Source: Blasia pusilla
Taxonomy: Eukaryota
NCBI GenBank assembly: GCA_050084515.1
Contig: CM114271.1
Span: forward strand, 25,544,001 to 25,608,000
DNA: 64,000 nt
Direction of reading: 5' to 3'
The position numbers were made by a program, and so were the translations under genes. The notes under the pieces are model-generated. The model saw only the letters and a list, made by a program, of their open reading frames with translations. It was not told where the DNA came from and did not search any database. Of the stretch, positions 4,748 through 62,843 are shown one piece after another. Within the stretch, counting starts at the first letter, position 1, and every line of letters starts with the position of its first letter.

Positions 4748-4758
4748 CTCATAGAACT
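4748..4758 (+). promoter_or_regulatory. Putative self-priming primer binding site
   Basis: CTCATAGAACT (CTCAAAGAACT in copy C, 55521-55531 minus) directly abuts the LTR end and is complementary to AGTTCTTTGAG at 4575-4585 inside the LTR; no TGG tRNA-type PBS. Confidence 0.7.
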
Positions 4759-7335: not shown

Positions 7336-7386
7336 GCTAGTTGAAATACAAGAGACTTAGCTTGTGTATTTCAGCTAGCCGCCACG

Positions 7387-9330: not shown

Positions 9331-9429
9331 ACTTCGGACTATGTCTGTGGGTCTAGCTAAGGGTGTACCATCTTGTGAGGGGGTTGCGTAGCAGCCAATG
9401 GCATCGTCCTCTCCCTCTAGTATGCCAAT

Positions 9430-15392: not shown

Positions 15393-17258
15393 TTCCTACA
15401 AAACTAGCATACTTATTACCCAACTAGCATCGAATTCATTAAAAAAAATCTATGTGCCGCAAACTCGTAGCAGTGCGGCTGAATTGCTGAAGAATCCCGT
15501 AGAGACTAGATTGAGACAAGTCCGAGACATGGATACCACTCCCAACGTAGAAGCGCTGACCTATGTGATCCCATGACAAAAAATAAGTGTGAAATCCTTG
15601 AAGTACTTGCAACACATCCAATACCTATCGCGAGCAAATAAGTGTTGGTTACAAGCGCTAGAACGGTAAAAGTCTACGCTTCCAGCCAACTGAGGCCAAT
15701 GAATTACAAAGCTTTGGGAGGTAGTTCTAGATGAAAGGTGCTCATTGTTTGAATACTTACAAGGTTTCCAATACCATGTTGCAGGAACAACTCAGCTTTC
15801 ACCTTCCAGTAAGTTGCCTGCTCTTCGGGATACCAACTAGGCAACTCAATTTAGTACAGTATGTTGCTCATGTCTTGACCAAAAAGAAGTTGTTTCTATC
15901 ACTCTGTTTCATTATCTCTAATGGGCAGAGACCTAATTAAAGGTTCTCCCTCGACGTGTGTAAACTTCCCACTCCTCAATGAAAGGAGAAAACCCCAAAC
16001 TGAGTAACGAGGGAGTTTTGTGTGCTAAAAATTGGCGCCGGTGCAATGAGCACGAGCATTCTCACTAGTGTGTCTTATTCAAGGATGGTCTCTGCAGAAT
16101 CTGCATAGCGTGTAAGAAAACGGAAGTCGTATTGTGGAAGATATCATCCTCACTCCCGTGCTCCAGTGCAGCTTTTCCGTAGAGTTTGCCTTCCAAGTTC
16201 CAAGTTCCCGACTTCCCACCAGTCAAGCTCTTCTCAGCGTCTGCCTGCTCTACGTAGACACGAGACTCGCCCAGCCACACGGACGGATAGAGATGCAGTG
16301 CCGCACTACACTGTGCTAACTGTAGCCAAGTAACTGCTGGTCCTGAACGAACCATATTACACGTACACAATTTTCCACGGTATCCGTCTGACCCGATTTC
16401 ACCATTAGCTGTGGGATGGGTGCCCCTCAGACTGCCCTTATGCTGCCCGTGCCCGCCTCACTGTTGCTCTTGTCCACTGTCTTTTCCCACCACAGTGACC
16501 GCACCACCTTCTCGTCTCAGGTTACCTGGCGGTCGTATCTAGACTTGACTCCTCTCCGGGCTGTGAAGTCTCAATGCGGGACCCACCGGGATGTGACCCG
16601 TGATCGAGGTTCTCTGCACCTACGCCCCGTGCGGGGTCCACACGGCACGTCGTCGGATTCCTCCGGGGGAAGGATGGAACTCTAGGACTCCGGGACAGGG
16701 CTTGCGGCGCTTCTCGCTCCGTAGAGTACTCGAGAAGCCCTGCGTATGACGTAAAGCGCCGAGAAGAGAAAGAGAAAGAAAGAAATAACGACGAGCAGTT
16801 TTCGTACGCTAGCGGCGACGATTTTGCTCGCGGTTTTGCCACATCGTCTCGTACCGCGAAAGTCGCCCCTTTAATTTAATTTAATTTAATTTATAGAATA
16901 TTGCGAGGTAAGGGGGGTCGCGTAAGCGCACCTTCGCTCACCGGAACCGCCTCTGTGGGACTGTGGGAGGCTCCAGCTCCATATTCTCGACCTACCGGGA
17001 CGGCTCGACTTAACGGAATGGGCTCCGGTCAAAGGGAGAGATGTTCCCACAGCTCCTTAGCCAGTGGCAACTTTTCTTCATGATTTGTACGCCTTTGACT
17101 TCCATACATTTCGGAGGACTCCTGAGGCCCTTGGCTGTCTCGGGAAATCCAACTCTCTCATCATTTTCAAATCTGGATTTTCGCCGGCAAGCTAGTATTT
17201 TCAATTGAGTCGGAATGAGTCATTCTTGTAATGCATTCATACATCTGATTAGAGAGAG

Positions 17259-22815: not shown

Positions 22816-25800
22816 TAATAGGATAAACAAAGATGCACTTCGATAAAAACGAGTGATGGAAAACCCATCGGAAGTACAAAAGAGGGGGACTCAAAGAGTC
22901 AAAACCTGAAGGCCACAACAGGACCAGAAAAGGAAGAAGGGGCATTCCCCCTAACGATTTAAACTCACCAACAGCAGAGACAATATCAAGCAACAACAAG
23001 AGAGCTATGACTACTACTAAGTGGGCCTCTAGTGTCGGCGTCTCCCACTGAGCCGAGCCGCCGCAAAATCCCATTAGCCTGGGCACGCCGCAACGCTATG
23101 GAGACCAGCGCCTACAATACAGAATCGCAGAGTTAAGGACAACCCATTTCTCGAGTGGAGATGATGGGCGCAGATCCATAAGGAACGAAGTCGAACCTCT
23201 CCCCCATAGCCCCATACATCTCTATGGCCAGGGGATGAAGATGTGTCCTCGTGTAGTCGACTATAGATATGTGTCTTCTTCGCCGCCCGCCGCCGCCGCT
23301 CCTTGTAGCATTCGCCTTGGGCCACCACTTGGGCTCGCATTGCCTCCCGCGTAGGATCTGCGTGACTACCACGTCGCCACAACCACCTTAGCCTCACGTG
23401 TCATGTAGAGATCGGCACGAATGAGGGAATCCCGCATGGAGTAGTGCTCTCTCTCTGCATATGGAAGCCACTCTCCGAGCAACATCGAACATGATATTCC
23501 GACCGCATTCGTGAGTGGCTATCCTCTCACCCCTAATCGACAGCGTGCCAAATGCACACCAAGTGGATCCAGGCTCGGCGACACTCATGTGTGTCGAACC
23601 AACCACCGATGGTTGGGGAGGCCCAAGCGGAACCGCATCTGTGGTATAGGTAAGTGGTGCGATACGGAAAGCCTGGAGAAGGGGGCGCGCCCCTACCCAT
23701 GAGCCTGCCCCCTTTCCGGAGCAAGAGCGAATACGGGCCCTAACCTCCATGGGGATATTCCGTAAGATATAGTGCCTCTAAAAATCGCCTCAAAGTGGGC
23801 TTCCATCAAGGAAGATTGGAGCCCAGGATCGACCGGAGGTAACTAAGGAGGAGAAAGTGGGGAGAACGGCTCGGCCTCAACTCGAAGGAATCTCTACAAG
23901 TTGTGAGTGAAGATTGAAGTGGGAAAGAGCCATCCTCGACCGGGAGACGTAGTGTAGAAGGAGCGGTCTATCTCTAACCAAAAATCGAGCAAAGGAGGGG
24001 TGCCACTATGGCCCAACTCCCTAAAAAAAAACGGAGGGCGCCACTAACTCGGTCGAGAGAAGACCTACTCCACCAAAAGAAATCGGCCAAGAGGCCTGTC
24101 TACGAGCTAACTCCCCCATGGGGCATTCTAAGGAGCCGGGTCCTAGAAGATCCCCAAACACCTGCATGAGCTTCCTATCAAAGGATCTATATAGGGAAGA
24201 AAGGTGACTAGATGTCCAGACAGTTCTAGTGAGGTAACCAGGTCTACGAGCAAAACAAGAAGAGAGAATGCCGAAGGCGATTTGAGGGTCACCAATCCTC
24301 GTAAGATCATCAACGTGGAGAAGATCCTCGGTAAGAGCCGTTGCCACGAAAGTCGATACAAAGTCCTGGCTCCCGAGCGGTACTCCCAAGACTCGAAGCC
24401 CTCCGACAGGTCGCAAGAAGCCGTCGGGTAAATGTAGATCATCACGTAGGCCTGATGGAGACCAAGCCTTGCACTTCCCCACCTTCACCGCCAGGCCGAC
24501 ACGTGCCAACTGTGTTGAAAAGTGCTCGAATGCAGGGACAACCAGATCTCCAGGACCAACAATATGAGTATCATATGCCAGCGAAGGGAACATGCAACCC
24601 GGGAAAGCCTCCACCGTAGAAAGAACCGCTCGGTAATGAGCCACAACAAACAACGCGCCACCCAGAGGGTCACCCTGACGAGTCCCGGTAGCAGACTCAA
24701 AGACCGTGACCTCCTCCTCGAATCGACCATGGTGGAAATAGAGGGCCGAAGGGGCCCCATAGAAAGCCTGGACAAAGGGAATGAGGCTCGCCATGGGGCC
24801 ACCCGCGTCCCTCAACTCTGTGAATATAGTAGCCCGAGATACTGAGTTGAAGGCGTTCTCCACGTCCACTTGGAGAACCACCCACTCTGGATGTACATCT
24901 AGACAAGCCCTCAAACCTAAGGCAACGCTCACATCCCGGCGGCGTGGCAACTCAAAGCGATGCGGACTCGAGATGTGATCGAAAGCCTCACGGAATTGCA
25001 AAGCCGAGTACGACTCACCAACCGCAAGAGCACCTCACCTATGGCAATCGGACGGATACCACCACCCCCTTTGACAACGCCAAAAGTCGCCCCGCCCCTA
25101 ATACTTGGGCCATCTTTGTTGGCACTCTCCCCGAGCTAGGTGAAAGGCAACTGAAGCAACTTTCGGAGAAGCCGCTAGCGGTGTCCTCGGAAGGAAAGCA
25201 ATCACGAAGGTGTTCGTACATCATACCAGACAAACCTCCGCCGCAATCCTCGGAGAACATCCAGTGCCCGTGCAAAGAGGGACGGGTCAAGGCATATAGC
25301 CGTGTCGTGGTGGAAGTCACGTGCAAAAGCTGGAATGTCAACCGATGGACGAGGATGTAGCCCGGAGGGCATCGATGGTAACGGTGAAGAAGGAGCCATG
25401 TCCATCGGGCGAAGAGCACGTCGGCTCGCGAGTACTCACAGGCTCTTGATGTCCTACATCGCCGCAACCTGGCCGCTCGGGATCGTCCGCCGGAAACCAG
25501 GTGAACTACTACCTCTAGCGAATGCCACAAACTCACTCTGCAGAGACTCCCAATCACCTCCTCGAAAGCGTCTTAGACGTGCTATAACCTCTCTATGACC
25601 GGCCTTCCCTCCCCGAGTGTAACGAAGATACCATCGTGGAAGGAGAAGTAGTAGGTACCACGAGAGCTCATCCATAGGATCAAGGGCGATCCTAGCGAGG
25701 GGAAGGAGGAATGCGTGGCGGAGGTCGTCCCGAATAGCATGGGGGATCCTATGAAACAACCTCGGGCAGGGAAAACGGGTCTCGAAGAGACCTATAATGT

Positions 25801-43576: not shown

Positions 43577-44621
43577 GAATATCTTCAGTCAAGACTGCTA
43601 CCCACTAAGGAAGTCTTTATGCCTTCAAACAGAAGCTATGCATCGATGTCAGGTCACTTACTAATTAGTGAAAACACGAGGAAGAAATTCTCCAAATAGG
43701 GATGATACTTCTGTATATATATGTGACTTGCTATTACCTATAGCCTTTGTCATTTGCACTCCTTGAGTGGGTCCTAGCCCCAACCATTGAGGTTGTCCAT
43801 ACACTTCTGGAGTGCTATTATTGAGTCCATAAAGGTATTGGCTACTTCCAAACCGATCTTGACTATTTGCCACGGCATGATAGGATCCCTCGATGTAGTT
43901 GGAGAATCCACCTTCCATAGAGTCTACACATGACATATATGTCAGTGTAGTACAGACACATTACACAACCTTCCCACCATCATCCTATGATGTATAATGA
44001 AAGAGAAATTTGAGATGGAAATCGATAGATTCGTACTATTCCACCCTTGCCCCGTTGGACAATATCCACCGTATAATGAACTTGGCTTAGAGTTCTCTGC
44101 ATAGGGTCCATCTCTACCGCCTTGAGACATGCTTGCCTGTCCCTCTCCACTATATTGTATATCCACTTGCTGTTTGAGAGGAATACGACTTTCAGGTACA
44201 CGCTCGGGTGCAACATCCCTTGCCCAAGTAGCTTGCCCCCCAACAGTCCGTTTCTGCCAATGCAATGCAACCCACCAATTAGAGACAATTTCTTTCAAAT
44301 GGCACTAACCTTGAAACACAATTGTATACACACATCTTGTCTAATTGATTAGAAAAATAACCTGCTTCTTCTTCCCCCCAATAGTTGATGGACAGGGCTC
44401 CTTAGGTGCCGGAAGCTCATCTCAGCCTGATTGATCCTCTTCACCAAAATGTACAACAAACTCTGGATCACAAGCGGGACATTCTTCACCTCCAATCTGA
44501 GCATCAATGTCATCAGTAGATTCTACCATCGCTCCCAATACCTTTCCAAGCAATTGAGAGCTCCTCCGCTTCGGTCCAAGATGGAGAGGCTCCCTCTTTG
44601 CAGGTCGTGGGGCATGTACTT

Positions 44622-45202
44622 TGTCGTGCGAATCCACATCGTCATACAACATACATCGCTGACATACCATACGCACATACATACATAACATAGACGAGAG
44701 TATCCACAAACGCAAGTGTACCACAACTGAAATCCGTGAAAGACCTTCTGTCATAAAACACGTTTATAATCACATACAATCAAGCCAAACCCACTCCACA
44801 ATGGAAGAATCTAGGTCGAAGCTTGGGAAACACCATAGCCAAGAGCTCACGCACTACCAAGGCTAACTCCCCAACGCAAGCAGGCTCAACTCAAAGAATC
44901 GATCGTTCTTTGAGGGCAAGCCACCTTATATCCTCCAACCTAAGAGCGGGCCCCTCTTGGGAAAGTCACCCCAAGTGAGTAACCCCAACCCTATGTATGG
45001 AACCGCATCTCTACCAAGCCACTACGGTCCTACATAAGGAATGGCCTCTACCAGCACACCATACTCTACAACATAATCCGTATGGTCATGACAGCTGTCG
45101 TGCGAATCCACATCGTCATACAACATACATGGCTGACATACCATACGCACATACATACATAACATAGACGAGAGTATCCACAAACGCAAGTGTACCACAA
45201 CT
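44622..45202 (-). repeat. Composite 3' terminal repeat B1-gc-A2-gt-B2 of copy C
   Basis: 107-bp block 44622-44728 repeated almost exactly at 45096-45202 on both sides of segment A; palindrome GACAGCTGTC at 45090-45099. Confidence 0.93.
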
Positions 45203-45211
45203 CGCCCCCTA
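45201..45211 (-). promoter_or_regulatory. Putative polypurine tract
   Basis: Minus strand reads TAGGGGGCGAG-T-TGTGGTAC, immediately before B1. Confidence 0.65.
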
Positions 45212-45362
45212 GCGGCGGTTAGGTCCTCTAACTCCCAGGTAGCCCTATACATCTACTACATGGTATACACCTTCTTGGGTGCCCGAATCAGAAGGCCGGG
45301 TGCTAGGTTGCCCCATCGTTAGTCGCACATCTGTAATCCATATCATGCAGAGATCAAGTCAT

Positions 45363-46612
45363 CTACCTCTCATAAGTACATCGAGGACAAACCCACCTTC
45401 CAGTAGGAACAACATCCAAACGTGGAGTCAAACACATCATATGCCAACCCTTAGAACACCGATCACACACCAACATACGGGTTGCGTTACCAGCAGACCC
45501 ACACAACATGCACCTCAAGCTAGCACGTATCATGGCTAAGCTTGGGTCAACAATACCATCCACATTTGGAAGATGACATGGCGCACAATTACGCACATGG
45601 TCCTTCCAAACAACTCCATCACGACCCTCCAACATGAGAACTCCAGAAGCTAACACCTCACGCACTCGTAAAATAGTGCGGCCTGCCGTCACATCCAACG
45701 TTGTCGGTGCAATCTGCTGCAAATAGACATAGTCCCCCCACATGGAACCTACGAATCGATGGTCGATAACCTCCACCCCGAATGGTTGCATACCGCAACG
45801 TATCCCTGTGTTGAGCAATGGCAAGATTCTCAAAGGTCATTGGCATAACTCTCCGAAAGAGCTCCGCCCTGAGAACACACCCTCATCCACATCTCTGGGT
45901 CATCAAGGTTCACCACCTCACTAGACTCGGCAATTCTGCTTGGCAAGTCTGGATCTCGGCCGTATAACAGAAAATAAGGTGAGAAGGAAGCCAAGGATGC
46001 TTGGAGATTGAACCTATACCCCATGGCTAACCATGGCAACTTAATATCCCAGTCTCCAAGATGCCCCTTCTGTAGGCCATACTTGCGCAATGCCCTTTTC
46101 ACCGTCTGAACCACACGCTCAGCCAAACCATCCGCCCTCTGGATGATCGAGCGTGGTCCGATGATCAATCAACGCCTTGTCACACAAGACCGAAACTCAC
46201 CCTGAAACTCAGTATCTGGTCGGTCAACACTTGGTGGTGCACCAAAATGACTAAGCACTCTATCCAGAAACGCATACGCCGTTCCCTCACTTGCCTTGTC
46301 CGGTAATGCCACCAACTCAATCCACTTGGAGAAGTGCTCCACCATCACCAACACATAACGATGATGTCGTACAATCAACGGTAACGGTCCCGCAAAGTCC
46401 ACACTCCAACGGTAACCCAACCCCATAATAGGCAAGGGGTGTAATTGTGGTGTAGGGGCATTAAATGATGCCCTCACCCGGTCACAAACCATACAACGTG
46501 ACACCAATTGCTGCACCTGAGTATGCATGCCACGCCACCAATACTGGCCAAGGAGTAAGCTATACGTACGCTTTACCCCAAAATGTCCCAACTCCTCATG
46601 GGCATGTCGCAC
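45363..46612 (-). pseudogene. Integrase with C-terminal PHD finger (copy C)
   Basis: HAHEELGH..CMVC, WSVDFAGP, GLAERVVQTVK, SPYFLLYGR, then CMLCGSAGNATRMLVCDRCSKGWHMMCLTPRLDVVPTGRWVCPRC (C4HC3). Confidence 0.92.
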
Positions 46613-46741
46613 TGTCGCTCTCTCTCAGCCAAATGTGGCACTACTCGTACTCTACCATCCTCCCACACGCGGAGAATATGTGTTCCCTCAATCGATACCT
46701 CTTAGCACGTTGAAGAACACGGTCTCGCTCCTTGGTACTCA

Positions 46742-49700
46742 CTATGCCGGCACCCCTCTTGGTCCGTAGGAACTCCAACACCAACGCATCATCATGAACA
46801 TCACGCTGATCCGTACCACCATCTCCAACCTTAGGATCTCAAGGTGGCCATCTACCCCTCGACTAGAGTAAGATATCATGTGGTCCTCCATACTAGAGTC
46901 CACCCTAACCAACATAAAAGGCGGATGCATGCCAACCTGGCACCATCTCCTCATCAACCTCACCATGCCATCTAGCCCGGTTGTATCCTCTTGGCTAGTA
47001 CATGGGTTCCTACTCAACCCATCAAGCATCAAGGTTGGCAACTCCAGGTCTATGTACCACCGGAAGTCATACTCTGTAAGATAAGAGCCCACCGTGCAAG
47101 CTTCCATGTAAGCTTGTCCGACTCCATCAACCACTTGAGCGGTGGTGATCGGTAACAAGGGTAAAGCGTGTGCCAAACAAGTAACACCTAAAGTGTGCCC
47201 ACCCACACTCTTGCCAAGCACTCTCCCTCATATGAACTATAGCGACTCCATTTGCATTATTCGAACGACTTGCATAGGCCACCACAAACTCCATGTGCTC
47301 ATCATCATGTTGTGTCAACACCGCTCCAAGTCCCAACCTACTCCAATCAGTGTGTGACTGAAGTGGGCGCCCTCTGATAGGTCTCCTCAAGATAGGCGCC
47401 GCCACCAAATGGGCCTTGAGCTGCACAAAAGTTCTCTCTTGATCATCTCCCCAGTGCCACTCTTGATCTGATTTCAACAATTGGTTCAAAGGTTTGCCAT
47501 AGCACTAAATCCCTTCACATACATCCGATAGTAGTTCACCAATCCCATGAATGCCCGAACTTTACTCACATCTACGGGACGAGGAATAAGTGCAATAGCG
47601 TCCACCTTTGCTTGCTGAACTCCCAAACCACATGGATAGATCACATGACCCAAGTACTCAACATCCTCATGGAAGAACTTACACTTTCCTCGATACAAAC
47701 GTAGACCATGAGCTTTCAACCTCTCAAACACAATCTGCAAATATATCTGATGCTCATCCACCGTGTTACTGAACACCAAGATATCATCAATGTAACACCA
47801 AACAAAATCCAAACCTGCTAGGATCTTGTCCATCACTCTCTGAAACTTGGCAGGTATATTCTTCAACCCAAAGGGTAAGAATTTCCACTGGTACAAACAA
47901 TCCTTGCCATGAGAGTTGACACCCCAAAATGTTGTCTTGGCCTTGTCACTCTCTCGAATTGGCAACTGATGGTATCTTGCCCGAAGATCCAAAGTACTAA
48001 AAATCTTTGTCTGTCCCAACACATCAAAGATCTCCTCAGGTGTAGGCATGGCATACCTATCGGCCTTGGTCTGCTGATTGATAGGACGGTAATCTCCACA
48101 CATCCGCCTATCCGTGTAGTTGCCATACATATCCTTTTTAGCAGGCATGACAATGGCTGATGCATACTCTCCATGCGACAACTCCACTAATCCAGCCTCC
48201 AAAAGATCCAACGTCCTACTCTGAATCAGGACCCTCTCCATATCACTATATCAGTAGGGACGACCAAAGATTGGCGTATCACTAGCCAAATCAATCCGTA
48301 TACCGGATCCAACCAGAGCACCCAACTCCTTCATGCTAAAGGCAAAACAACTCCAAGAAGCACGTAGGAACTGTGTCAAGTGTCGTTTCTCACCTCCCGT
48401 AAGCTTGGGCCCAAGTAGTGGCTCCCAAGTCTCCTCCATTGGCATACTAGAGGGAGAGGACGATGCCATTGGCTGCTACGCAACCCCCTCACAAGATGGT
48501 ACACCCTTAGCTAGTCCGAAGTCGACGCTGCTCGGCCATACCAAGACTCAAAATCCAAATCAAACAATTCAGGTCCATGGCCTGACCCAACACATGACGT
48601 AGTGAAGCCTCAGAAATGGAAGCAACCGCTGTCACACCAGTAGCAAATCCCATCGCACGCTCTCTTTCATCAGCGCTAGGCTCCATCAACTATCGCACAT
48701 GAGAATCCTATATAAGCCCGGGACCACCTTCCATGTATGCATGTGACGAGGGAAAACTCACAAATGTGGGTAGTATATAGCGCGACTCCGCAGCATTATT
48801 CGAACGACTTGCATAGGCCACCACAAACTCCATGTGCTCATCATCATGTTGTGTCAACACCGCTCCAAGTCCCAACCTACTCCAATCAGTGTGTAACTGA
48901 AATGGGCGCCCTCTGATAGGTCTCCTCAAGATAGGCGCCGCCACCAACTGGGCCTTGAGCTGCATAAAAGTTCTCTCTTGATCATCTCCCCAGTGCCACT
49001 CTTGATCTGATTTCAAAAATTGGTTCAAAGGCTTTGCCATAGCACTAAATCCCTTCACATACCTCCGATAGTAGTTCTCCAATCCCATGAATGCTCGAAC
49101 TCTACTCACATCTATCGGACGCGGAATAAGTGCAATAGCCTCCACCTTTGCTTGCTGAACTCCCAAACCACATGGATAGATCACATGACCCAAGTACTCA
49201 ACATCCTCATGGAAGAACTTACACTTTCCTGGATGCAAACGTAGACCATGAGCTTTCAACCGCTCAAACACCATCTGCAAATGTATCTGATGCTCCTCCA
49301 CCGTGTTACTGAACACCAAGATATCATCAAATTAACACCGAACAAAATCCAACCCTGCTAGGATCCTGTCCATCACTCTTTGAAACTCGGTAGGTGCATT
49401 CTTCAACCCAAAGGGTAAGAATTTCCACTGGTACAAACAATCCTTGCCATGAGAGTTGATACCCCAAAATGTTGTCTTGGCCTTGTCACTCTCCCGAATC
49501 GGCAATTGATGGTATCCTGCCCGAAGATCAAAGTCTTGAAAATCTTTTGCCTGTCCCACACATCAAAGATCTCTCGGTGTAGGCATGGCATACCTATCGG
49601 CCTTGGTTTGCCGATTGATAGGACGGTAATCTCCACACATCCGCCTATCCGTGTAGTTGCCATGCATATCCTTTTTAGCATGAGGCATGGCGATGGGCGA

Positions 49701-49985
49701 TGCATACTCTCCATGCGACAACTCCACTAATCCAGCCTCCAAAAGGTCCAACGTCCTACTCGAATCAAGTCCTCTCCATATCACTATATCGGTAGGGACG
49801 ACGGAAGATTGGCGTATCACTAGCCAAATCAATCCGTATACCGGGTCCAACCAGAGAACCCAACTCCTTCATGCTAAAGGCAAAACAACTCCTATAAGCA
49901 CGTAGGAACTGTGTCAAGCGTCGTTTCTCACCTCCCGTAAGCTTGGGCCCAAGTAATGGCTCCCAAGTCTCCTCCATTGGCACAC
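46742..49985 (-). pseudogene. RT-RNase H of copy C, present twice in tandem
   Basis: First RT/RNase H at about 49985-48775; second copy, starting with the DNMT C-terminus, from 48774 through RT ORF 47486-48241 and RNase H 47127-47489. Confidence 0.9.
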
Positions 49986-50239
49986 TAGAGGGAGAGGACG
50001 ATGCTATTGGCTGCTACGCAACCCCCTCACAAGATGGTACACCATTAGCTACACCATCATCGAGCAAATAACTCCTCCACAGCAAAGATGAGCAACCAAC
50101 TCCACATGCCCAGCCATTACATCCCATCTACTCCAAGGATGCAAAATACTACTCTCCTCGCCCCCAGCCGATGCCTCTACCGTCCCGGTAGACATCGAGC
50201 TCATTACAAGGGGTGGAAGACCCACAGACATAGTCCGAA

Positions 50240-51235
50240 GTCGACGTTGCTCGGCCATACCTAGACTCAAAATCCAAATCAAACAATTCAGGTCCATGGC
50301 CTGACCCAACACATGACGTCGTGAAGCCTCGTAAATAGAAGCAACATTTGTCAAACTCAGAGCAAATCCCATCGCACGCTCTCTCTCATCAGCGTTAGGC
50401 TCCACCAAGTGTCGCACATGAGAATCCCATACAAGCCCCGGACCACCTTCCCTATAGGCATGTGACGAGGGAAAACTCACAAATGTGGGTAGTGCCATCC
50501 TAGGCTGGCCCACACGGTTCACCACTGCCATGGGTGACCGATCAATAACCCTCACCACTTGGGAAAGTCGCCCATTATCCAAGATACTATCCACTGTAAG
50601 GCGAGGATCCCGCTGCACTGCATCATATGCTCGACGTAGAACCTCCCTAGGCAACAAGTTTTTCCACCACAAGCGTGGACGATGTGCACGCGAGCCAACT
50701 TGCGCTGCATCCAACAACACCGCTGGTCCAATCCAAGAGCGCACCTCATGAACACTCGCCATCATCCGGGTCCGAGTGTCACCCAACAATGGAACATTCT
50801 CCATAATGTAAGCTAGAGCACGTGCCTGATGAACCTGAAGATGTCGTAACATCCGTAACATCTCTTAAAACAATCGAGACCTAGGGTCATGTAATCCCTC
50901 ACCACGACCAGCACGTGTATGACCCTAACATGGCCATCCAGCAATCACCAAATCCACAGGACCAATTCTCTCAAGGTCATGCGCCCCCAACAATGCAATG
51001 TGTGATGGTAAAGCACGCTGGTACCCACGAATAGCTGATGGCGGCAAAAACTCAGGATATCTCCGCATCAACTAACCAATATGTCGGGATGAGACTCTGG
51101 GCCGTCTCAACTCGCTCCACATACACGTATCTCCGCACAGGAATACCGGCCTGCAACACTGCAGCCAAACCAGTGCTAATCCCACCAAAGAGATCTAACA
51201 CACAAATGCCCTCTGGCGGATACTACCATACAATG
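50240..51235 (-). pseudogene. DNMT3-like methyltransferase domain of copy C
   Basis: ICVLDLFGGISTGLAAVLQAG, VDLVIAGWPC*G, and ORF 50049-50861 with YIMENVP, AHRPRLWWKNL, ERERAMGF, SRRHVLGQAMD. Confidence 0.92.
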
Positions 51236-51599
51236 GGTGTAGTATCTAAAGGGGATAACCCAACTGGGCCAGAAGTAGGAGTCCGCCGTGGGGCCTCCTC
51301 TTCCTCGTGAGGTATAACCTCACACCAAGCCTCTGCACTAGGCGATCGCCTCTGCCATAGTGCACCGCTGAACTCCAAAGTGGCACATCCAACGATGAGG
51401 ATGCCCTTTGTTGCAAAAAAATAGGGAACTCCTCTTCCTCCTCATGCGCAGGAGAATCCATAGCGAAACATTGACCTCCAAAAGTCTCTGGCCAAGTGAC
51501 TACTCCACTAAAACCACCCACAGATGCTAACACTATTGGGGAAGACCCTCTTGGTCGAGCCCGTAAATAAATCTCACAGAACTTGGCTCATACGTCCAT

Positions 51600-54080
51600 C
51601 CCGGATCGCCAACCTGGTCTATAAGACATTTGTCTCGACCCAAGAATCCATCCGAAAACCCATCGGGTACAACATCGTCCTCCAACTAGTACATCATACG
51701 ACTCGGCTGATGTGACTACTGCAGATACTCCCAACCGGGAGCTATCAGTCGCATGATCTAGTCTCAACTGTATACAGAAAACTTCTCCGTGTCATGAATT
51801 GAGACCTATCATTGGCTCCTCCAAGTGATGTTTGAATCTGGAATGGGCAAGGCTCAAGCTCTGACCTCCGAATACCCAAACCAATACATGCCGCCTTTCC
51901 CAACATCAAAGGTTGGGCACCAGAGTCTAACAAGACTCTATCTGGTCTATACACCTGTCTTGTAGGACTCACCAATCGGAAGATCCCACTCCGGTTGTCC
52001 AACATACATACACCAGGTGTAAGCCTCTCACGATCAATGGCTGGCCGGGCTGGTAATGCATCCATCTTCGCCGCTGCTGCCTGCCAAGTAGCACCGGGTA
52101 CTCAATGCTACTCTGACATAGAGGGTCGCTCCACCGCAACACCCTCATCCACCTCAACACGTGTAGCAGTAACACCCCCACGTTCACACAACGTGGTTGC
52201 TAACTGAAATACATGAGCTAAGTCAACTCCTAAAGCCATCAGCTCCGTGGCCGAAAACAATGGGGATCCCAACACTGAAGTTGCCATCCGCATATTGCAT
52301 TGATCCGCATCCGTGTCTACTACACGCGATGTAGATGCCTCGATCCCCCCACATTGCCCGCTCAATAGGCTGCGAGGAACCATGGATGGAGTCCTAAGCA
52401 CCTCGAGACAACAAGAATGATGGGAAGCCTAGCGCCTCCCACCTCACCCCTATGTGGGTCCAACTCCACAAGAGCACCACGTGGCTCGACGCTCGAGTGG
52501 CTCCTCTCAGAATCGGTGATGCCTCAACCTCAGGCCGCACTCGCCATATAAGAGAGATCATCCCTCCATAAGAGGTGGAAGCCCTTGCTCCCGAACCTGA
52601 TCTATCTTTGGATACCGACCATAGTAGCCAACTTCTCTGCTCCAATGCTCAATCCTGAAAGCCATAGCCGACTGTCGTAGTGGTAGGGGTAGCCACCGTA
52701 GGCTCTCCAACCACTGGTCCACCTCTACCACCCCTACCACCTCGGCCTCTCGGAGCTACTCCACCATGGCCACGGCCTGATCTCAACTGTGGATGAAGAT
52801 CAAAGCAACGCTCTCGAGGATGACCTAGTCTCCCGCAATGATCACACCTGAGTTGGGGCCTCACTGAGGCCCATCCTCCAAAGTCCGTCTCCCATCCTCT
52901 TGGGGACAAAACTTCCTAACATGATCACCTCCACATGTCCAACATGATCGCCCTTGCTGCAGGGCAGCAAATGAAGGCAATGGTCTTTGCACAAATGTCC
53001 CTCTAGGACTTGACGAGGTCGCGTGTACCCCCACGACTCCCACTACTACTACCACCACCACTACTACGAGGCGTGAGGTGGGGCTTTGAACACGAGAAGT
53101 AGTAGTTGTATCCCCTACTTGAATGCGGATGTCACCACTCTCTCCTTCACCATGTTAAGCTCAATCTTCTCGAGATAGAGCAAACACATGGGTCAATGTG
53201 GGTGAATCATCACTCATAAGAGTAGCATCACGCACCCTACGGCGCAAATCTCTCATCCAAGATCCCATACCAAAACTGGACTGCCTGATCCTCAGTCACA
53301 CCCTGGGTAACTAAAATCAAGCGTCGCATATACGTGTATGCCTCACGAAGACTCTCACCAGTCTTTCGCTCAAAGTCTTGAAGATTCCTCAACTTCTCCG
53401 TCTTCACTCCTTGATAGTTCTTCTTCAACCTCTTGAAGAACTCGCAATCGGGCTAAAGGATGGTGGGGCACTAGTACCCCCACTAGTACCTCCACGGTAC
53501 CCCCACTCCGGCTCGTACTGCGTACCACTCAGTCGAAATTTGGCGGGCATAGTAGGAGCACTACTACCAATACCACCATGGGTGATAGACACATAGCACG
53601 GAGACCAATATTGTCTCCATGCCTCAATCTCAGCAACATGGTCCTTCCTAAACTCATGGTAATCATCCATGGGTGGTCCTTCCAAGTGCTGAAAGAACCC
53701 CTTCCAAGCCAAGAAGGGTGTAAACAACGTGGCGTTCCGCAAGATCTGCATATCACACCACGTATCAAACTCCCCGCATGAAGTCCTCCAACTCAATGGT
53801 ACCCACTGCGCACCGAGTATCGTCGTGGGCCCTTCATGGCCCCATATCCACCGTCCATGTCCCAAATCAATGGAGCTGCAACACTCGATAACAACGTAGA
53901 AGACTCGGTGTTTGGAACACCCTCGTCCTCCTCTTCATCAACCGTCGGAAGTGGAAAAGGTAGCCGATACCTAAATCCACTCCGTGTGAAACCACCACCA
54001 TCCGCACCACGGTCCCCAACCGAGACCACCCGACGACTCCGTGATGACCAACGCCGATGCCGCACCACCACCAAATTACC
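51600..54080 (-). pseudogene. gag and protease of copy C
   Basis: gag core as in copy B, knuckles CWTCGGDHVRKFC and CDHCGRLGHPRERC, an RGG-rich tract, protease VLLDSGAQPLML. Confidence 0.88.
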
Positions 54081-55531
54081 AAGTGATGTCGATGTCGCTA
54101 TACTATTCTAGCTCTACTAGCTATGGGTGTAGGCAACCTAAGTTGTCATCACCACAAGAAAGTCTCCCACAATCTACTCGTCATCCCTCCAGCCTCACTA
54201 CCGGTAGCACACATGAGTAACACTACTCTGGAAATCAGCGTCAACCCTAACAATGGGCGCGCAAGCAAGAAGCACGATGGAGGGGATCCAAACACAGGAA
54301 ATCCAACGACAACCCTCCAATCGCAAATGGAAATCAAGGTAACACAATCCACCAAACGTGGTGCCCTCTGAATCCACAAAACCCACCACACAATTCTAAC
54401 GCAATAGCTACTCCGCCGCGGGTCGATGACGTGCTAGTCGAACTCGCAGCACCTGAAAATATCACCTGCATGGAGAGGCTACACAGTACTATGCGCTAGA
54501 GGTACATCAACCAAAAACCTGAGATGCATAAAGTGCCTAAGACCTCTCCGAGCTACAACAGTCTGTACACTGGCATAGTTAAGAACTCAGCAGTTAAGCG
54601 TCCTCCAGGCAGAATAGCCCAAAGATGGGTGACCAGTTATGCAAAACTCAAATCCTAAATCCTGCAAAAATTGCCTCACGCCCAAGCAAGCAAGCTTGCT
54701 TGCTTGCTCCTTGTCCTTACTCCGCCTCTCACGCCCACTCGCCCCGAGCTACCACGAGTTGCCTCGAAGCCTCAAAACGCCGAGACATGCCCCTATCGCC
54801 CCGTTCGCCATGCTTCGCTAAGGAGAGAGGTCCAACCAGGGCGCCCCCAACGGGATAGGCGTCTCCAAAAATGAACGAGTCACCAATCAACCAGCCCCTC
54901 CGATCCTCTGTCCACCATAGCCAGACCTTGAGCTAGTCCGTGAAATTTCGATCAAAAATTACTTCACAAATACGTGACCGAAATCAAATCTATTTCAATC
55001 AGAATTCAATTGACCACCATAGCTATCTCCTTACAAAAACTCAACTACAACCGAGCTCCGTACTCCGAGCTAAAAATCAGACAAACTTGCTGTCCATACA
55101 CCTCTAGAACCGCAAATCCGGCTAAAGGCTTCCGCCAAGTTTCATGCACGAGAAATCCGCAACGCTCCACGCACTCAAGCAGATAGCTTCACATGAGATC
55201 ACAATACAAGTAGTAATAGGAACCTCTCACCCGATCTGGATGATTCAACAGAGCTTCCGCACTCCAAGCTCTCCACATCAGAAAACTGTCGAACACGACC
55301 AGAATCTTCAATGCTTGATAACTTCCAACTCCCTTGACGAAATCCGGCGATCTACAGCGCGTTGGAAAGCTCTCAGCAAGGCGCTTCTTTCCCAACCAAC
55401 TGCGCACCAGATTCACACCTCCAACATAGGCCACAAGCCACGAACATCCACGGCTGAGTACACAATCAGCCCTAACCAGATCCTACTGATCTACAATCGA
55501 AGCTACCATCAATCTACTCCAGTTCTTTGAG

Positions 55532-55896
55532 TGAAATCCGTGAAAGACCTACTGTCATAAAACACGTTTACAATCACATACAATCAAGCCAAACCCACTC
55601 CACAATGGGAGAATCTAGGTCGAAGCTTGCGGGAAACACCATAGCCAAGAGCTCTACTCACTACCAAGGCTAACTCCCAATAACACGCTCAACTCAAAGA
55701 ATGATCGTTCTTTGAGGGCAAGCCACCTTATATCCTCCAACCTAAGAGCGGGCCCTACTGGGAAAGTCACCCCCAAGTGAGTAACCCCCAACCCTATGTA
55801 TGGAACCGCATCTCTACCAAGCCACTACGGTCCTACATAAGGAATGGCCTCTACCAGCACACCATACTCTACGACATAATCCGTATGGTCATGACA
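55532..55896 (-). repeat. 5' terminal repeat (segment A1) of copy C
   Basis: Direct repeat of 44728-45093; minus strand TGTCATGACC...GGATTTCA. Confidence 0.93.
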
Positions 55897-56208
55897 ACTT
55901 GCTTAGAACAAGCCTCTGCGCTGCACATGAGGACGAGTTTTTCAAGAACATGAATTATGCACAATGCTTATGATTCATTCATAAAGGCCCACACCTGAGT
56001 GCTCAATATGTCAAAGCTTACGATTCAACGCCTCTCTGTTTGAGTTCTTCCGCCAGTTCCTTAAGGCGTCTGATCACATAAGCCGCGTGGGCCTCAACAG
56101 GGTCACACATTTCATTCACATTTTCCATCAAATTCCTTAAAAAAAAAAACAACCTGCATGTCCCATGAACCCATGCCGAATGACATAACACACCACACAA
56201 ACATTTCT

Positions 56209-59200
56209 TTAAGAACCCACGACATCATTAAGTTTCTTTGCAATCTCAATGTTTCCTTCCCATCTTTCTACCCTCATCAAGGGTACATAATGACTTTCGA
56301 CAGCTGTGACAGGTTGAACCGTTCTATTGGGAGCTTCAAAAGCCCCATGGCCATCTAAATTGAACTCCAAAGTATTACTTGATACCCTACGATTCCTCGC
56401 GTGCTTGTGGCACACTACTCGCCATCCGTGCGATGCGTCCATGTCTAGGAAGAAAGCCTGTTCAACTTGACTAGGGAATACAAAAGGTTCGGACCATTCA
56501 GGTTGCATTTGCCTGAAGTTTGCTAGTAAGAATCCATCACTACCACGCTTTATTGTAGCCCTAGCCCCACGCCAATCTGGTCGCACCCAAGTCCCTTTCA
56601 TGAGAATGATAGGATTGGGTGTGTTCCCATAGTCCAAATTCCATATGTCAGTTAGCTCTCCTATGTATCCCATTTGCATCCATCCTCTATCTTGGTGATT
56701 GCTCATTTGCTCGATTACAGATATCAACCCTGAATCATATGTGACAAAATAATCGTCACTTTGATCTACCACACGGCAGTAGTTTCCATAGGCTTGCATT
56801 CTCTTGTAAGCTAAGACGGACATTCGAGGTGGAGCAGAAAGAAGATAGACATCCTGGTCCATATTTGGGTGTAGTGTTGAATGCTCCCGGATGGCCAATC
56901 GAATCCATTATGTGAGTGGTGGAAAGCCCCCCGTACCACCCCCAATATGTGCATTCTTCTCCATATTATATTTCCTGTAGAGGTCATGCCATTATTAGCC
57001 GACCGGTATCTGGTGAGCGACGACATGAAATAAAACAAGGAAGCCAAGTAAATGCAACAACAAGTAGACTTCAGTCATTCAACCCTTTACTTACCTCCAC
57101 CATATGTTGCATTACACTAGTGTTTTGCAACACATATTCATGAGCCATCTGCCAAATATGCCTCGGCAATTGCAATGGGGAACCTCTGCCTTGAAGAACT
57201 TCACCTACAGCTCCCTCATCTTCCTCCACTTGCCATATCCTGGCCTTCACATGTTCAAACCCCGCCATATACTCTATCAAATATCCCAAGGTCTCGTGTG
57301 AAATGTAACCCATTGCCATGCTAGCCTCAGGCATGTATCTTGTCAAGACATGGTCTTTCAAGACTTTCATAAAACGCTCCAGTGGGAACATCCACCTGGT
57401 ATAAACATGCCCATTCTGTCCAAGCTCTTCCACAACCTGGATAACGAGATGAATCATCACATCAAAGAAGGCGGGAGGAAAATGGATCTTCAAATCGCAC
57501 AATAATTCTGCCACATCATCTTTGAGCTTGGGAAAGCTTGTTGGATCAAAGACCTTCACACATATACGACCAAACACCTTGCACAATCATATGATTGCAT
57601 TACAAATCGGCTTCTGCATCAATCCCCTTAAGCATACATGCATAATATGTTGCATAAGCACATGATAATCGTGTGTCTTCATACTACTGAGTTTCTTGTT
57701 TTTTACATGCTTTTTGAAGGCACATGCATAGACGATCGGAACTCTCAAAGATTGAAGCCTCGAAATAAATTTTGTCCACTCTATGTCTGTGCAAACATAA
57801 GGTGCCTGGTATTTCAATACCACATTGGGTTTGTTCTCATCATCCTTTAACCAGAATGGAGAACCTATTCTCCTCTCTTGGAGATCCAATTGCATTGTTG
57901 TGGTGTCCTTCTCCCCAGAAAGGAACCTCAATAGGCTCTCACATACATTTTTCTCACTATGCATTACGTCTAGATTATGTTTGCTAGGGTCGAACTCGTG
58001 TTACACCACATATGACAACCATGAGTACAAATGGATGATAAACGAGCCTCAATTCTTGAAAGCATATGGTGTGGCAAATAATAGACATTGCAACCATGGC
58101 GGATGGGTGACATAGATTACCCGCCAGTAGTCCAACTCCACATCAAGTATGCTCTGCCGTTTCACACCATATCTCTATCATGGATCTCATTGAGCATTTG
58201 GAGCTTCTGTATCTTGGCGTTCCAATCCCCCTATAAACCCACACCTGTGCCTCTTTCCATGTCATACATGGTCTTTTGGTGTCCCCAATCCAGAATCTGC
58301 TCTTTAGTGACTCTTGGAGGTGGACCACGAAGCTCTCAAGCATTGTTGAATTGAACTATCTGTGACGCCCTATGTCTGTAAGGATGATCAAGTGGGAGGA
58401 AACGTCGATGTCTAGTGTATTTCATGCTCCTCAAAGGTCTGGAATGCTCACCATTGAAATTGGGGCCACATGATGTACAAGCCAAATACCCCTTTGTTGC
58501 CTGACCGGAAATCATGCCGTGGGCTGGATAATCTCTCAAAGTCAATACCAATTGGGCTTTTAGCTTGAGTGGGTTTGGTCTCCCAACCCGTTGCACCACA
58601 TCATGGATCCAAATGCCTTTGTACCACAAGCGCTTCAACTCATCCACAAGAGGAGCTATCCAAACATCTATATTCCTAGAAAGAGCAGATTGTGGGCTCG
58701 GGATAAGCAAAACCAATATGACAAAAAACTTCTTAGTAGTCAACCACGGAGGGAGGTTGTAATTCAGCATGGTTTCAGGCCAGCAAGAATATCCATTGTT
58801 CTTGTCTCCGAATGGATTGACTCCATCATTCGAGAGGCCAAGTCTCATGTTCCTTGTCTCTCTTGCAAACTCTGGCCATCTCCGCTCGATGAATCTCCAA
58901 TGTTCTAAATCTCCAATGTGCCACTGCAGGCCATCAATACTCTTGTTCTCGGCTGTCCAAGTCATCAACTTTGAAATATTTGGGCTCTTGTACATCCGTT
59001 TCAATCTAGGAATGATTTCAAAATGTCGAAGTACCTTTGTAGGTTGCATGGACTTGCCCACATTCCTATACCTTTGTTCTCCACATACCGGACAACTTGA
59101 TCAATTTGCATGCTCTCCTATGAAGAGCATATGGCCATCAGGGCAAGCATGAATGGAATTGTAATTCAATCCAAGACTTGACAACAATTTAGTTGCCTCG

Positions 59201-59889
59201 TACTTATTGCCAGGAGCCGTGTTCCCAATAGGAAAGACTGTTGTCTTCAAGAATGCAAGTAACCTTGAAACAAACATAGTTGGGACACCATGATTCCCAC
59301 AGATGTACATCAACATGAGTACAAAGGACAACTTTGTACACTTAGAGCCATGGAACAGAGTCCTGCATGCATCAACAACAGTTTCATGCGACCCAAACAT
59401 CCATCCCTTCTCATCCTCTTCTTGCCCAATATCGTATGCGTCCTCTACAGCCTCTTTGGCCGCATTAGTGACGTCTTCCATGCTCTCAACATCATCATAG
59501 AATGCATCAAGATCTTGGAAGATGTCACGGACCATTCGTTGCACATCAACCCCATGATCAACACTATCACCTTCAGCATCAATCCGTTCATCACGGGTAT
59601 TTTCTTCAAACTCCTCGGGTGTGGTACCTGCCTCACCCGCATCTCAGGCATCGAGGTTGCCCGTTGCTTGTCCCAAAAACTATGCATGTCTAGCCGCATT
59701 GGCAATGTTTGATGTAGACCTCCACTCTTCATCAGATGAGTCCTCATCACCTATAACTCCAGAAACTCTTTTTTCTGGATGCCTTCCATGTTTCTGAAGG
59801 TGAGTGAAAACATTCCGCAAGGCCATTGTGCGAGATCCATTGCAAGCTATACAAGGACAACTCATCCAGTCACTTCTAGAGTGTCCCAC
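56209..59889 (-). pseudogene. CACTA Tnp2/TnpD-type transposase (transposase-associated, Transposase_21, DUF4218 and DUF4216-like parts)
   Basis: CPCIACN..HLQKHG; IHACPDGHMLF; RNMRLGLSNDGVNPF, YNLPPW, DYPAHGMISG; MHSEKNVCESL, MKTHDYHVLMQ; FPPAFFDVMIHL, WMFPLERFMKVLK; EPFVFPSQVEQAFF. Confidence 0.93.
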
Positions 59890-60408
59890 TAGGACTTGCT
59901 CGCGATCCCAAAGTTTGGAATCACGAGCTCTGATCCGTTCTGGATGTTGTAATGGTAACGTGCTTGTTCTAGGTCTGAAGCGGTGTGGAGGATTGCCTAT
60001 GGGTGCATGATGATGAGCATTTTGCCCTCAGTAGGGAGGGCTAGGTGGGACATCCATGAAACCCTAAAGATACCAAAATTCACTATCAACCATAAAAAAA
60101 TATGTTTATAAACTTATAGGGTGGTAACAAAAATGCGCGAGGTTGTTGATATTCCCCACCTTTATACAATTGATTGGCCAACTTGGAATGTAGTCACTGC
60201 ATGTGGACATATTCGAGCAACCTGGTATTGAGGCAAAATCAATGAGACGGAACCCACATTGAATACAAAAATACATGTCTTAGTACATGGTCTATGCACT
60301 ACTTTCACAACTATCCAAATTAGTGGAATCTGTTTCCTCGTCATCTATGGTTTGCCACTCATCTGTAAGCTCCTCCATGTCTCCAAAGACTTGGTTGATC
60401 CGGTATGG

Positions 60409-61200
60409 CTATTTCACTAGTTTATTTCTGATCAAGTCATGTGGACTACTTTCTACCAATTGCCCTAATTCAATGGATTCTTTGACCCAGTTGTAATGAA
60501 GCACATACAGACCTTGAGATGAGACCCAAAAATGAATCAATGTCTTTCCATGATGTCTACAGGCTTTGGAAAAGGATCGGAAAATCAAGTGGGTGGTATT
60601 CCTATCCACCGTGTCATCCACATGCCCACCATATTCTATAAATTTTCTCTTCATCCATGTCAACCTCCATTGAGATATATTGTCAGGGACAAATACTACC
60701 CTCACCGACCAAACATGGTTGGATGTGGAGTGGGTGGCGGACCAGTTGGGAGTGGTTTCCCTTCCCTCACATTCTTCCAATTCAATTTCTTTTCCCTCAG
60801 AATAGCCACCGAGCTTGATTTACTCTTGAATAGATCATGGTCGTCAGGGTCATGCAATCTTCTATCCTAGATGGAGAAGGATAACCAATCTATGTGGACA
60901 TATTTAACACCTCGTTCATTCCTATGGGAATTCAGGATGGTCCATCTGAAATGCTCCAAAAATCTTACCCAATTCCCATAAATTCCATGTGTGGCTTCAC
61001 AGAGACAATCAGTCTCTCTCCCACCCAATTTCACAAAGTTTATCTTAAGCCGACACCATCCATCATAGGACAATTCAAGGGAGGCCATGATGCACGCTAC
61101 AATCCTTGCAAAAAGAGAGGTTGGCATCGTACCCGATGCGCATTCGGGTGAGGTCTAATGACACATTATCACTTTAGAGACACCGCCAGTTGGGAGTGGG
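60409..61200 (-). pseudogene. Two tandem BRCT-like domains
   Basis: FVKLGGRETDCLCEATHGI..VHIDWLSFSI and FIEYGGHVDDTVDRNTTHLIF..LHYNWVKESIELGQLV (GG, THLI and W-x-x-x-S/C hallmarks); a stop separates the two ORFs. Confidence 0.65.
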
Positions 61201-61707: not shown

Positions 61708-62843
61708 CTAAAGTGTGGGATCAACTTTGTGATGGTGGCAATAGAACCACCACCTATCCTCACCACATGCACCATGGTCATATATAATCCGATCGCATGC
61801 ATAACCCTTGCTCATAGCCTTCTTCAAGCAAGTCCAATGCCATGCAGTGGGGCACCTAGGACAATAGACCATGTCCTCCCACAACTCCTCATCATGCTTA
61901 TGGCATTCTGGGTAATAATGCATGGGGAAAGACTCCACTCCAGTAGGCAAACAAGTAAAGCAAAAAAACCTCACACAAAAGGTATATGGGCACTTTCTCA
62001 CACGAAATCCCATAATCCTCGCTCTCTGCAAAACTCCCATCTAGACCACAATTGGCACACCTGGCCATTTTCCTCACACAATCTTGGCACAACCAGCTCC
62101 CCTTGTGGTTTGGTAGGAGGTTGACCCCTGGGCAAGAGTTCTCTATAGCCCCCGCTGATTTTGCAGTTGCATGGAAGTGTCTGGCACAAGGCCCGTCGCA
62201 AACAACCAGGTCTTTCCCATGTTGTGCGAATCCACATCGTCATACAACATACATCGTTGACATACCATACTCACATACATATATATCATAGACGAGAGCA
62301 TCCACAAACACAAGTGTACCACAACTGAAATCCGTGAAAGACCTACTTTCATAAAACACGTATAGAATCACATACAATCGAGCCAAACCCATTACACGAT
62401 GGGAGAATCCAGGTCAAAGCTTGCGGGAACCACCATAGCCAAGAGCTCTACTCACTATCAAGGCTAACTACCAAGGCAATAGGCTCAACTCAAAGAACTA
62501 ACTGTTCTTTGAGTGCACTCCACACTATATCCTCCAACCTAAGAGCGGGCCCTACTGGAAAAGTCACCCTCAACTCAGTAAACCCCAACCCTATGTATGA
62601 AACCGCATCTCTACCTAGACACTACGGCCCTACATAAGGTATGGCCTCTATTAGCATACTATACTCTACGACATAATCCGTATGGTCATGATACCCATCA
62701 TCACAGATTGCACAAATGTGGGTTGCCTTTTGCAAAACCTGGAGTGCACTATATGGCGCATAAGTGCTCATCTTGAGGGTTTTCTTGGCCTCGTATTTCG
62801 GGCGCGCCATCCTTGTACTCGTACATTTTGAGACAAAAGACAA
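61708..62843 (-). pseudogene. EDM2/NSD-type multi-PHD finger ORF interrupted by solo D
   Basis: Removing 62220-62693 and one TSD gives HICAICDDGKDLVVCDGPCARHFHAT..WLCQDCVRKMARCANCG, then RKCPYTFCVRFFCFTCL..CPRCPTAWHWTCL after a frameshift. Confidence 0.8.
62220..62693 (-). mobile_element. Solo terminal repeat D (A-gt-B) of the Gypsy-DNMT family
   Basis: Matches 44622-45093 end to end; 4-bp TSD CCCA at 62216-62219 and 62694-62697. Confidence 0.95.

Follow-up and report, generated by a model that had tools for sequence, protein, structure and literature searches.

Split direct repeats in a land-plant Gypsy retrotransposon and their possible origin from cDNA with joined ends

Retrotransposons that carry long terminal repeats (LTRs) and a DDE integrase are held to insert a linear complementary DNA (cDNA) with two identical LTRs, and circles that contain two LTRs (2-LTR circles) are regarded as dead ends. 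A Gypsy element in the land plant Blasia pusilla raises the question of how an insertion by such an enzyme can come to have two different ends. The element occupies positions 44622-55896 of a stretch of 64,000 nucleotides (assembly GCA_050084515.1, contig CM114271.1, positions 25,544,001 to 25,608,000), which was analysed as a whole and is referred to below as the window. The reading that we come to, by a modest preference, is that the element belongs to a streptophyte Gypsy lineage encoding gag, protease (PR) and a DNA methyltransferase (DNMT) followed by reverse transcriptase (RT), RNase H (RH), DDE integrase (IN) and a PHD finger, that the copy is dead, and that its permuted insertion derives from cDNA whose ends had been joined, most simply through a 2-LTR circle.

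Layout and ends of the element

The span of the element was established by repeat finding and by direct reading of the sequence, and two repeated segments, A and B, define its ends. On the minus strand, the order is target site duplication (TSD) AAGT, A1, a putative primer binding site (PBS), gag-PR-DNMT-like-RT-RH-IN-PHD, a polypurine tract (PPT), B1, GC, A2, G, B2 and again TSD AAGT, with an internal region of about 10.3 kb. The features that define the ends are as follows.

55897-55900, minus strand: 5' TSD, AAGT in element orientation and ACTT on the plus strand, the same four nucleotides as at 44618-44621
55532-55896, minus strand: A1, 365 nt, starting TGTCATGACC and ending GGATTTCA
45096-45200, minus strand: B1, TTGTGG...CACGACA
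45094-45095, minus strand: GC spacer between B1 and A2
45090-45099, no strand assigned: junction palindrome GACA-GC-TGTC, where the end of B abuts the start of A across the 2-bp GC spacer; identical in the relatives L004 and L005 (below)
44728-45093, minus strand: A2, from repeat finding and direct reading
44622-44727, minus strand: G spacer (44727) and B2 (44726-44622), the latter ending CACGACA
44618-44621, minus strand: 3' TSD, AAGT

The 5' end consists of A alone and the 3' end of B-GC-A-G-B, and identical LTRs running from PPT to PBS are not found at the two ends. Direct reading bears out the initial annotation, made from the sequence without database searches, in both the TSD bracketing 44622-55896 and the difference between the ends. 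The identity between A1 and A2 is 94.1% (371 columns) and that between B1 and B2 99%, with one difference in 106-107 nt. Since the identity of B1 and B2 reaches back to AGTTGTGG, the spacer between A2 and B2, originally given as GT with B beginning at TGTGG, is equally readable as a single G. The start of A (TGTCATG) and the end of B (CACGACA) make a 7-bp inverted pair with one mismatch, and the 64-kb window has a single instance of the 10-bp junction palindrome, precisely at B1/A2, against an expectation of 0.04 for the window.

The A...B-A-B layout is real and holds across the family, as is seen from further copies in the window.

62220-62693, minus strand: solo A-G-B, an independent insertion with TSD TGGG at 62694-62697 and 62216-62219
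4381-11538, plus strand: copy 2, in which A (4381-4747) adjoins unrelated DNA on its 5' side and is followed by the internal region as far as the integrase H2C2 domain; the 3' part is missing
4-4380, minus strand: an older related Gypsy element, about 73% identical in nucleotides to the focal copy, interrupted by copy 2 at 4380/4381 and with ends outside the window

The solo copy is 88% identical to A2-B2, shares the A/B junction with the focal copy and has its first dinucleotide mutated to TA, and in copy 2 A is followed by the same sequence as in the focal copy. Of the four A copies in the window, three lie next to DNA other than B on their 5' side, two of the three B copies are followed by DNA other than A, and both insertions with two ends (focal, AAGT; solo, TGGG) have a 4-bp TSD outside the start of A and the end of B. 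Predictions of the initial annotation are in this way borne out at an independent insertion, namely termini at TGTCATGACC and CACGACA, TSDs of 4 bp and an invariant CA-G(T)-TG junction. Ordinary LTRs of the form BA, which had been named in advance as the finding that would count against the proposal, are seen in none of the three window copies, and the layout is also present in a second family.

The public data point to the same boundary. Sequencing evidence came from 20 runs in the form of Logan contigs. Most of these are unitigs with a length of about 90-400 nt, which does not suffice to count the types of junction, and the contigs aligned to the window show the family to be highly repeated. 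Their depth goes from 0.57 in bin 44564-44604 to 49,617 in bin 44605-44645 in X1 and from 25 to 4,578 between the same bins in X8; the family depth collapses exactly at the end of B2, which is therefore the family boundary. Among the matches listed (32 of 34,574), one contig from another organism (X2 record 13, 45041-45139) bridges B-GC-A by a 31-nt rule, and none bridges A-G-B or spans the whole of B-A-B.

The second family was found among contigs of genomes labelled as prokaryotic, which were scanned with an alignment of integrase-PHD homologues; 68 stretches matched and four of them encode relatives (L004-L007). L004 and L005 share 87% identity with one another and about 65-68% nucleotide identity with the focal pol, and A and B are unalignable between the families. 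In L005 the stop codon of integrase-PHD is followed by TAGGGGGGGCA, B (106 nt), GC, A (360 nt), B (106 nt) and 21 nt of other DNA, and the two B copies are 100% identical. This is the end of a second family with B-GC-A-B, from an assembly unrelated to the window. L004 is a contig of 9,285 bp whose order is PPT-B-GC-A-PBS and then the internal region. L004 and L005 carry an identical CACGACA-GC-TGTCA junction, and GACAGCTGTC is common to both families despite the unalignable A and B.

The assembly of L004 closes on itself through a terminal overlap of 127 nt, as expected of a collapsed repeat or a circle. L006 and L007 (46% amino acid identity, GC-rich) lie on contigs that extend only 420-450 nt beyond the PHD finger; no repeats are seen within that reach, which is too short to be informative about the ends. 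The assemblies that hold L004-L007 are labelled cyanobacterium, Halanaerobiaceae bacterium and Mollicutes bacterium; the Gypsy contigs are of eukaryote type and are likely to be contaminants that arose in binning. The metagenome-assembled genome with L004 yielded only the two contigs already found, a metagenome scan with the pattern of the start of A gave three stretches, all of them chance matches of 20-33 nt, and a scan of viral contigs gave no relative.

Coding content, priming site and surroundings

The internal region of the focal copy is split into many open reading frame (ORF) pieces in pol and carries a 1.54-kb internal duplication; the copy is dead. Its recognisable parts, all on the minus strand, are given in element order.

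51592-52323, minus strand: protease-region remnant, by tblastn to L004 ORF1 aa 367-633, where Asp_protease_2 covers aa 516-563
50235-51255, minus strand: degenerate region that lies between PR and RT and resembles a cytosine-5 DNA methyltransferase, by tblastn to L004 ORF1 aa 731-1071 (E 1.45e-85)
47254-50493, minus strand: internal tandem duplication of 1.54 kb in RT/RNase H, units 47254-48774 and 48793-50493, about 94% identical
47489-48241, minus strand: reverse transcriptase (RVT_1, E 5.3e-29)
47130-47489, minus strand: RNase H (RT_RNaseH_2, E 1.6e-16)
46172-46612, minus strand: integrase, H2C2 zinc domain and rve (DDE) core (Integrase_H2C2, E 6.1e-15; rve, E 3.9e-07)
45366-45833, minus strand: integrase C-terminus with PHD finger (PF00628, E 3.8e-11)

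The order RVT_1, RT_RNaseH_2, Integrase_H2C2/rve is that of Ty3/Gypsy pol, and the rve integrase, the short TSD and the TG...CA termini (TGTCA...CGACA) are likewise those of Ty3/Gypsy elements, in agreement with the original assignment to Gypsy with a DDE integrase. The rve match of the focal copy (30.7 bits) is slightly below the Pfam cut-off of 32.6 bits, and that of the intact relative L004 reaches 51.7 bits. L004 has an intact ORF1 (3-3488) encoding gag-PR (Asp_protease_2)-DNA_methylase (PF00145, E 6.8e-12) and, after a stop, an intact second ORF (3492-6632) encoding RVT_1-RNase H-H2C2-rve-PHD. The focal ORF itself gives no Pfam match to DNMT; PF00145 covers aa 749-893 of L004 ORF1. The RT/RNase H duplication is found in the focal copy only and is absent from copy 2. 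No tyrosine recombinase (PF00589, E <= 0.01) was matched in 19 ORFs of two window copies or in the three ORF segments of L004.

At the C-terminus of the integrase of the focal copy and L004 no chromodomain was matched and a PHD finger stands in its place, which may act as a chromatin-reading targeting module. Nine of 16 homologues combine rve and PHD, among them proteins named from Marchantia, Calypogeia and Sphagnum, and the nearest named homologues of both the integrase-PHD piece and the gag-PR-DNMT ORF are from Marchantia polymorpha, Calypogeia fissa and Sphagnum fallax. An identification of the family with wheat 'Fatima' was considered and dropped, the nearest homologues being bryophyte and the available part of PMC3129301 giving no LTR anatomy. 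In one database protein (P0015, 1516 aa), DNMT, RT, integrase and PHD are all encoded by the same ORF.

The features that bear on priming lie in and next to A1 and before B1.

55727-55732, minus strand: TATA-like box TATAAG in A1, by direct reading
55707-55716, minus strand: hairpin arm CTCAAAGAAC in A1, by direct reading
55693-55702, minus strand: putative self-primer (A)TTCTTTGAG in A1, paired with the PBS in the predicted fold
55522-55531, minus strand: putative self-priming PBS CTCAAAGAAC, directly after A1 and complementary to 55701-55693
45201-45210, minus strand: PPT AGGGGGCGAG, abutting B1

Each of the four A copies in the window has, after the TATA-like box, a hairpin of the form CTCAAAGAAC-loop-(G/A)TTCTTTGAG, in which the arms are invariant and the loop is variable. 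The 3' arm begins 30 nt after the TATA box and complements the 10 nt directly after A1; the equivalent of the PBS in copy 2 is CTCATAGAAC at 4748-4757. In L004, ATCTTTGTCAAG begins 29 nt after TATAG and has a perfect 12-nt complement, CTTGACAAAGAT, directly after A (7239-7250 with 7416-7427). The sequences differ between the families and the complementarity is kept, over 9-10 nt in the window family and a perfect 12 nt in L004. The RNA 5' end, with the transcription start predicted from the spacing to the TATA box, pairs with the PBS in the minimum free energy and centroid folds of both families, and the L004 fold has a z-score of -3.29, with one of 200 shuffles as good. On sequence grounds the arrangement fits putative self-priming of the Tf1 type; self-priming is predicted for 12% of plant elements in the available part of PMC6317226. 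A tRNA-type PBS, for which motifs starting with TGG 11 and 24 nt downstream of A1 and at the beginning of B came into question, was set aside; the self-primer is preferred because its site abuts A and co-varies between the families. The PPT adjoins B1, and none is found before A2 in the focal copy; it has the variant AGAGGGCGAG in other copies (loose contig end at 45218), and TAGGGGGGGCA takes its place before B in L004 and L005.

Around these copies, the window holds other mobile and coding DNA. The solo copy (around 62150-62760, minus strand) is inserted into a PHD-finger-like coding sequence (...ICDDG / KDLVVCDGPCARHFHATC...), and a weak BRCT-like ORF lies at 60412-60819; this may be either a host gene or transposon sequence. 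Copy 2 breaks off at 11538 inside the integrase, and the absence of its remainder and of that of the older Gypsy element suggests later deletion. A CACTA-type transposase of land-plant type lies at 56209-60027 on the minus strand (Transposase_21, E 2e-53; DUF4218; weak DUF4216 and Transpos_assoc); taken with the nearest named homologues, it points to a host that is most likely a land plant of bryophyte grade. Two ORFs in the regions 14904-15395 and 24024-25034, both on the minus strand, have Pfam matches, one to NAD-GH (PF10712, E 1.5e-25) and the other, a weak one, to RVT_1 (E 1.2e-07). Rfam gave no match to an RNA gene anywhere in the window.

From the predicted cDNA to the insertion

In the strand-transfer scheme of retroviral reverse transcription, a PBS that follows A and a PPT that precedes B lead only to BA-internal-BA. 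The reverse-transcribed LTR should therefore be B-GC-A, as the initial annotation had expected. The predicted cDNA ends (start of B, end of A) and the observed insertion ends (start of A, end of B) are circular permutations of each other, and the A-G-B junction is exactly the two predicted cDNA ends joined. An LTR predicted as B-GC-A, yet insertions that start with A and end with B, imply that the cDNA ends were joined before or during integration.

The simplest reading, we infer, is a 2-LTR circle that is opened by the DDE integrase at the palindrome. Reverse transcription would give a linear cDNA of the form BA-internal-BA, and joining of its two ends, most simply in a 2-LTR circle, would create the A-G-B junction. 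The DDE integrase would then cut 3' of both CA dinucleotides at one GACA-GC-TGTC palindrome, leaving CA-3'OH ends with 2-nt overhangs, and the permuted molecule would be inserted with a 4-bp TSD and a loss limited to GC. The next RNA would start in A1 and run through B1-GC-A2, and in this way template the BA LTR again. The proposed circle mechanism agrees with every sequence feature examined, and these features are conserved across two families. A bolder version, in which a streptophyte Gypsy lineage integrates obligatorily from the 2-LTR circle and its DDE integrase recognises GACA-GC-TGTC inside the reverse-transcribed LTR, is tenable, and we lean slightly against it.

Several points weigh against joining of the ends in a circle. 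The A pair is about 6% apart and the B pair differs at one nucleotide, which would be unexpected of repeats that were identical at insertion, barring later gene conversion, and when judged against copy 2 and the solo copy it is A2 that holds most of the changes private to A1 or A2. The 3' copy of A in L005 ends ...CTCTC, not CA. The fold of the focal copy is marginal (z -1.94, with seven of 200 shuffles as good). Since the circle has two identical palindromes, insertions of the form A-G-B-GC-A-internal-B would also be expected, and neither of the two element 5' ends is of this kind. Furthermore, the account leans on a transcription start and a poly(A) site that are predicted and on a circle and an integrase opening that we infer. 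The alternative products A-B-A-internal-B and A-internal-B are likewise not seen among the three window copies, which are too few to judge.

The explanation that competes most directly dispenses with a ligated circle. Over-length head-to-tail cDNA, made by template switching, would be cut at two palindromes, or the element would be inserted in two pieces and completed by host end joining, in which case the integrase would cut one palindrome of linear BA-internal-BA and the host would seal the end of A to the start of B. The A-G-B junction is clean and identical in two junctions of the window family and clean in L005, which would also fit a templated or polar process, and A-internal-B-A-B is the sole permutation seen. 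Standard strand transfers should, however, yield BA-internal-BA only, nothing in the present data points to over-length cDNA, and a chromosome break sealed after integration would be a risky route for a successful family. We consider such a route unlikely, though it deserves to be weighed seriously.

Two further explanations have very little probability. The first is that the element is conventional, with A as its LTR, B as the end of the internal region, and an extra B acquired by local duplication or 3' transduction. A1 and A2 are indeed direct repeats bounded by TG...CA, as an LTR finder would report, but the four nucleotides after A2 are GTTG and those before A1 are AAGT, so that the A1...A2 boundaries give no TSD and the duplication is found solely outside B2. 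The solo copy is A-G-B with its TSD outside B, the extra B is present in a different family (L005), and the PPT stands before B1 and not before A2. The second, to which we would give equally little weight, is mobilisation like that of DIRS, PAT or Ngaro elements, through single-stranded or circular cDNA and a recombinase acting in trans, so that the layout would have nothing to do with the DDE integrase. In its favour are the PAT/Ngaro-like order of the repeats (PMC5890265, in its available part) and the methyltransferase domain, a feature of many DIRS elements; against this stand the 4-bp TSDs in both testable insertions, the conserved TG...CA inverted termini, the failure to match PF00589 in any ORF scanned and the intact integrase of L004. 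Finally, a one-off rearrangement or assembly artefact is scarcely credible, since even though the focal copy is old, rearranged and internally duplicated and no listed contig spans its B-A-B, the solo A-G-B, the 5' end of copy 2, L005 from an unrelated assembly and the B-GC-A bridge in a contig of another organism all speak against it.

The conservation of the permutation across two distant families makes the joining of cDNA ends a concrete and testable case for productive integration from joined-ends DNA. LTR finders that require identical LTRs with adjoining TSDs, such as the filter described in the available methods of PMC6317226, would drop or mis-annotate elements of this kind, and the lineage may as a consequence be under-counted in plant genomes.

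Comparison with known systems

The initial annotation knew of no description of this layout in Gypsy elements, a statement that has to be withdrawn. KnitGypsy-Dnmt3 from the charophyte Klebsormidium nitens (de Mendoza et al., 2018) combines a DIRS-like repeat structure with Gypsy domains (PMC5890265, legend to Fig. 4c), and the DIRS arrangement is defined there as A-coding region-B-A-B (legend to Fig. 1e). By its layout and domains, the element described here counts as a new addition, from a land plant, to a lineage whose unusual repeat order has been published before. The two share Gypsy domains, a cytosine DNA methyltransferase in the polyprotein and A-coding-B-A-B repeats, a likeness that concerns the features given in the available part of PMC5890265. 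The C5 methyltransferase that characterises Gypsy-DNMT3 is found in L004 ORF1, and the focal copy has a degenerate homologue. The differences are that the host here is a land plant, with the nearest named homologues in liverworts and a moss, that DNMT lies in the gag-PR ORF ahead of RT (L004), and that a PHD finger ends the integrase; no Klebsormidium name occurs among the named homologues of integrase-PHD and gag-PR-DNMT.

The available part of PMC5890265 gives no TSD, termini, PBS, PPT or mechanism for KnitGypsy-Dnmt3, the name KnitGypsy appears in no other paper in the literature searched, and a 2026 preprint mentions streptophyte Gypsy-DNMT3 in passing only. As far as the sources searched were available, no mechanism was found for a Gypsy A...B-A-B layout, and split direct repeats together with integrase and gypsy led only to tyrosine-recombinase elements or reviews. 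A mechanistic reading is now offered for a layout noted in a 2018 figure legend only.

With PAT, Ngaro and DIRS elements the Blasia element shares split direct repeats of the form A1...B1-A2-B2, in which the redundancy is carried by the internal B-A junction, and often a methyltransferase. It differs from them in its DDE integrase and TG...CA inverted termini, and no tyrosine recombinase was found; DIRS elements insert without a TSD, whereas the insertions here have TSDs of 4 bp. Tf1/sushi and Tcn1-like chromoviruses resemble it in the predicted self-priming by the RNA 5' end and in a chromatin-reader module on the integrase C-terminus (Neumann et al., 2019; PMC6317226, available part). They have ordinary identical LTRs and a chromodomain, in contrast to the permuted ends and PHD finger described here.

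An enzymatic parallel comes from retroviruses. As far as the available parts of the two reports show, the integrases of prototype foamy virus (PFV; PMC1180852) and human immunodeficiency virus type 1 (HIV-1; PMC1905944) cleave the palindromic LTR-LTR junction of 2-LTR circles; the DDE enzyme cuts circular DNA in the manner of a restriction enzyme where CA and TG ends abut, and 3'-processed ends result, as is proposed here. In the retroviral case the palindrome, with a spacer of 4 bp, is itself the site of ligation, and when it is cleaved the normal linear genome is recovered (PMC1180852, PMC1905944). In the Blasia element, by contrast, the proposed cut would fall inside the reverse-transcribed LTR, at a 2-bp spacer, and the ligation junction A-G-B would be kept in the insertion.

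A DDE enzyme acting on a circle junction, where inverted repeats are abutted with a spacer of 2-3 bp, is also characteristic of bacterial insertion sequences of the IS3/IS30 type, which, unlike the element described here, are DNA-only elements without reverse transcription. If the bolder version of the mechanism, with obligatory integration from the circle, is true, the Gypsy element would be a natural retroelement that revives the old model of the circle as integration precursor and that resembles the IS3-type circle junction. Split direct repeats would then be the mark left by a circular intermediate, irrespective of the type of recombinase, and would have been reached convergently in DIRS-like and Gypsy elements.

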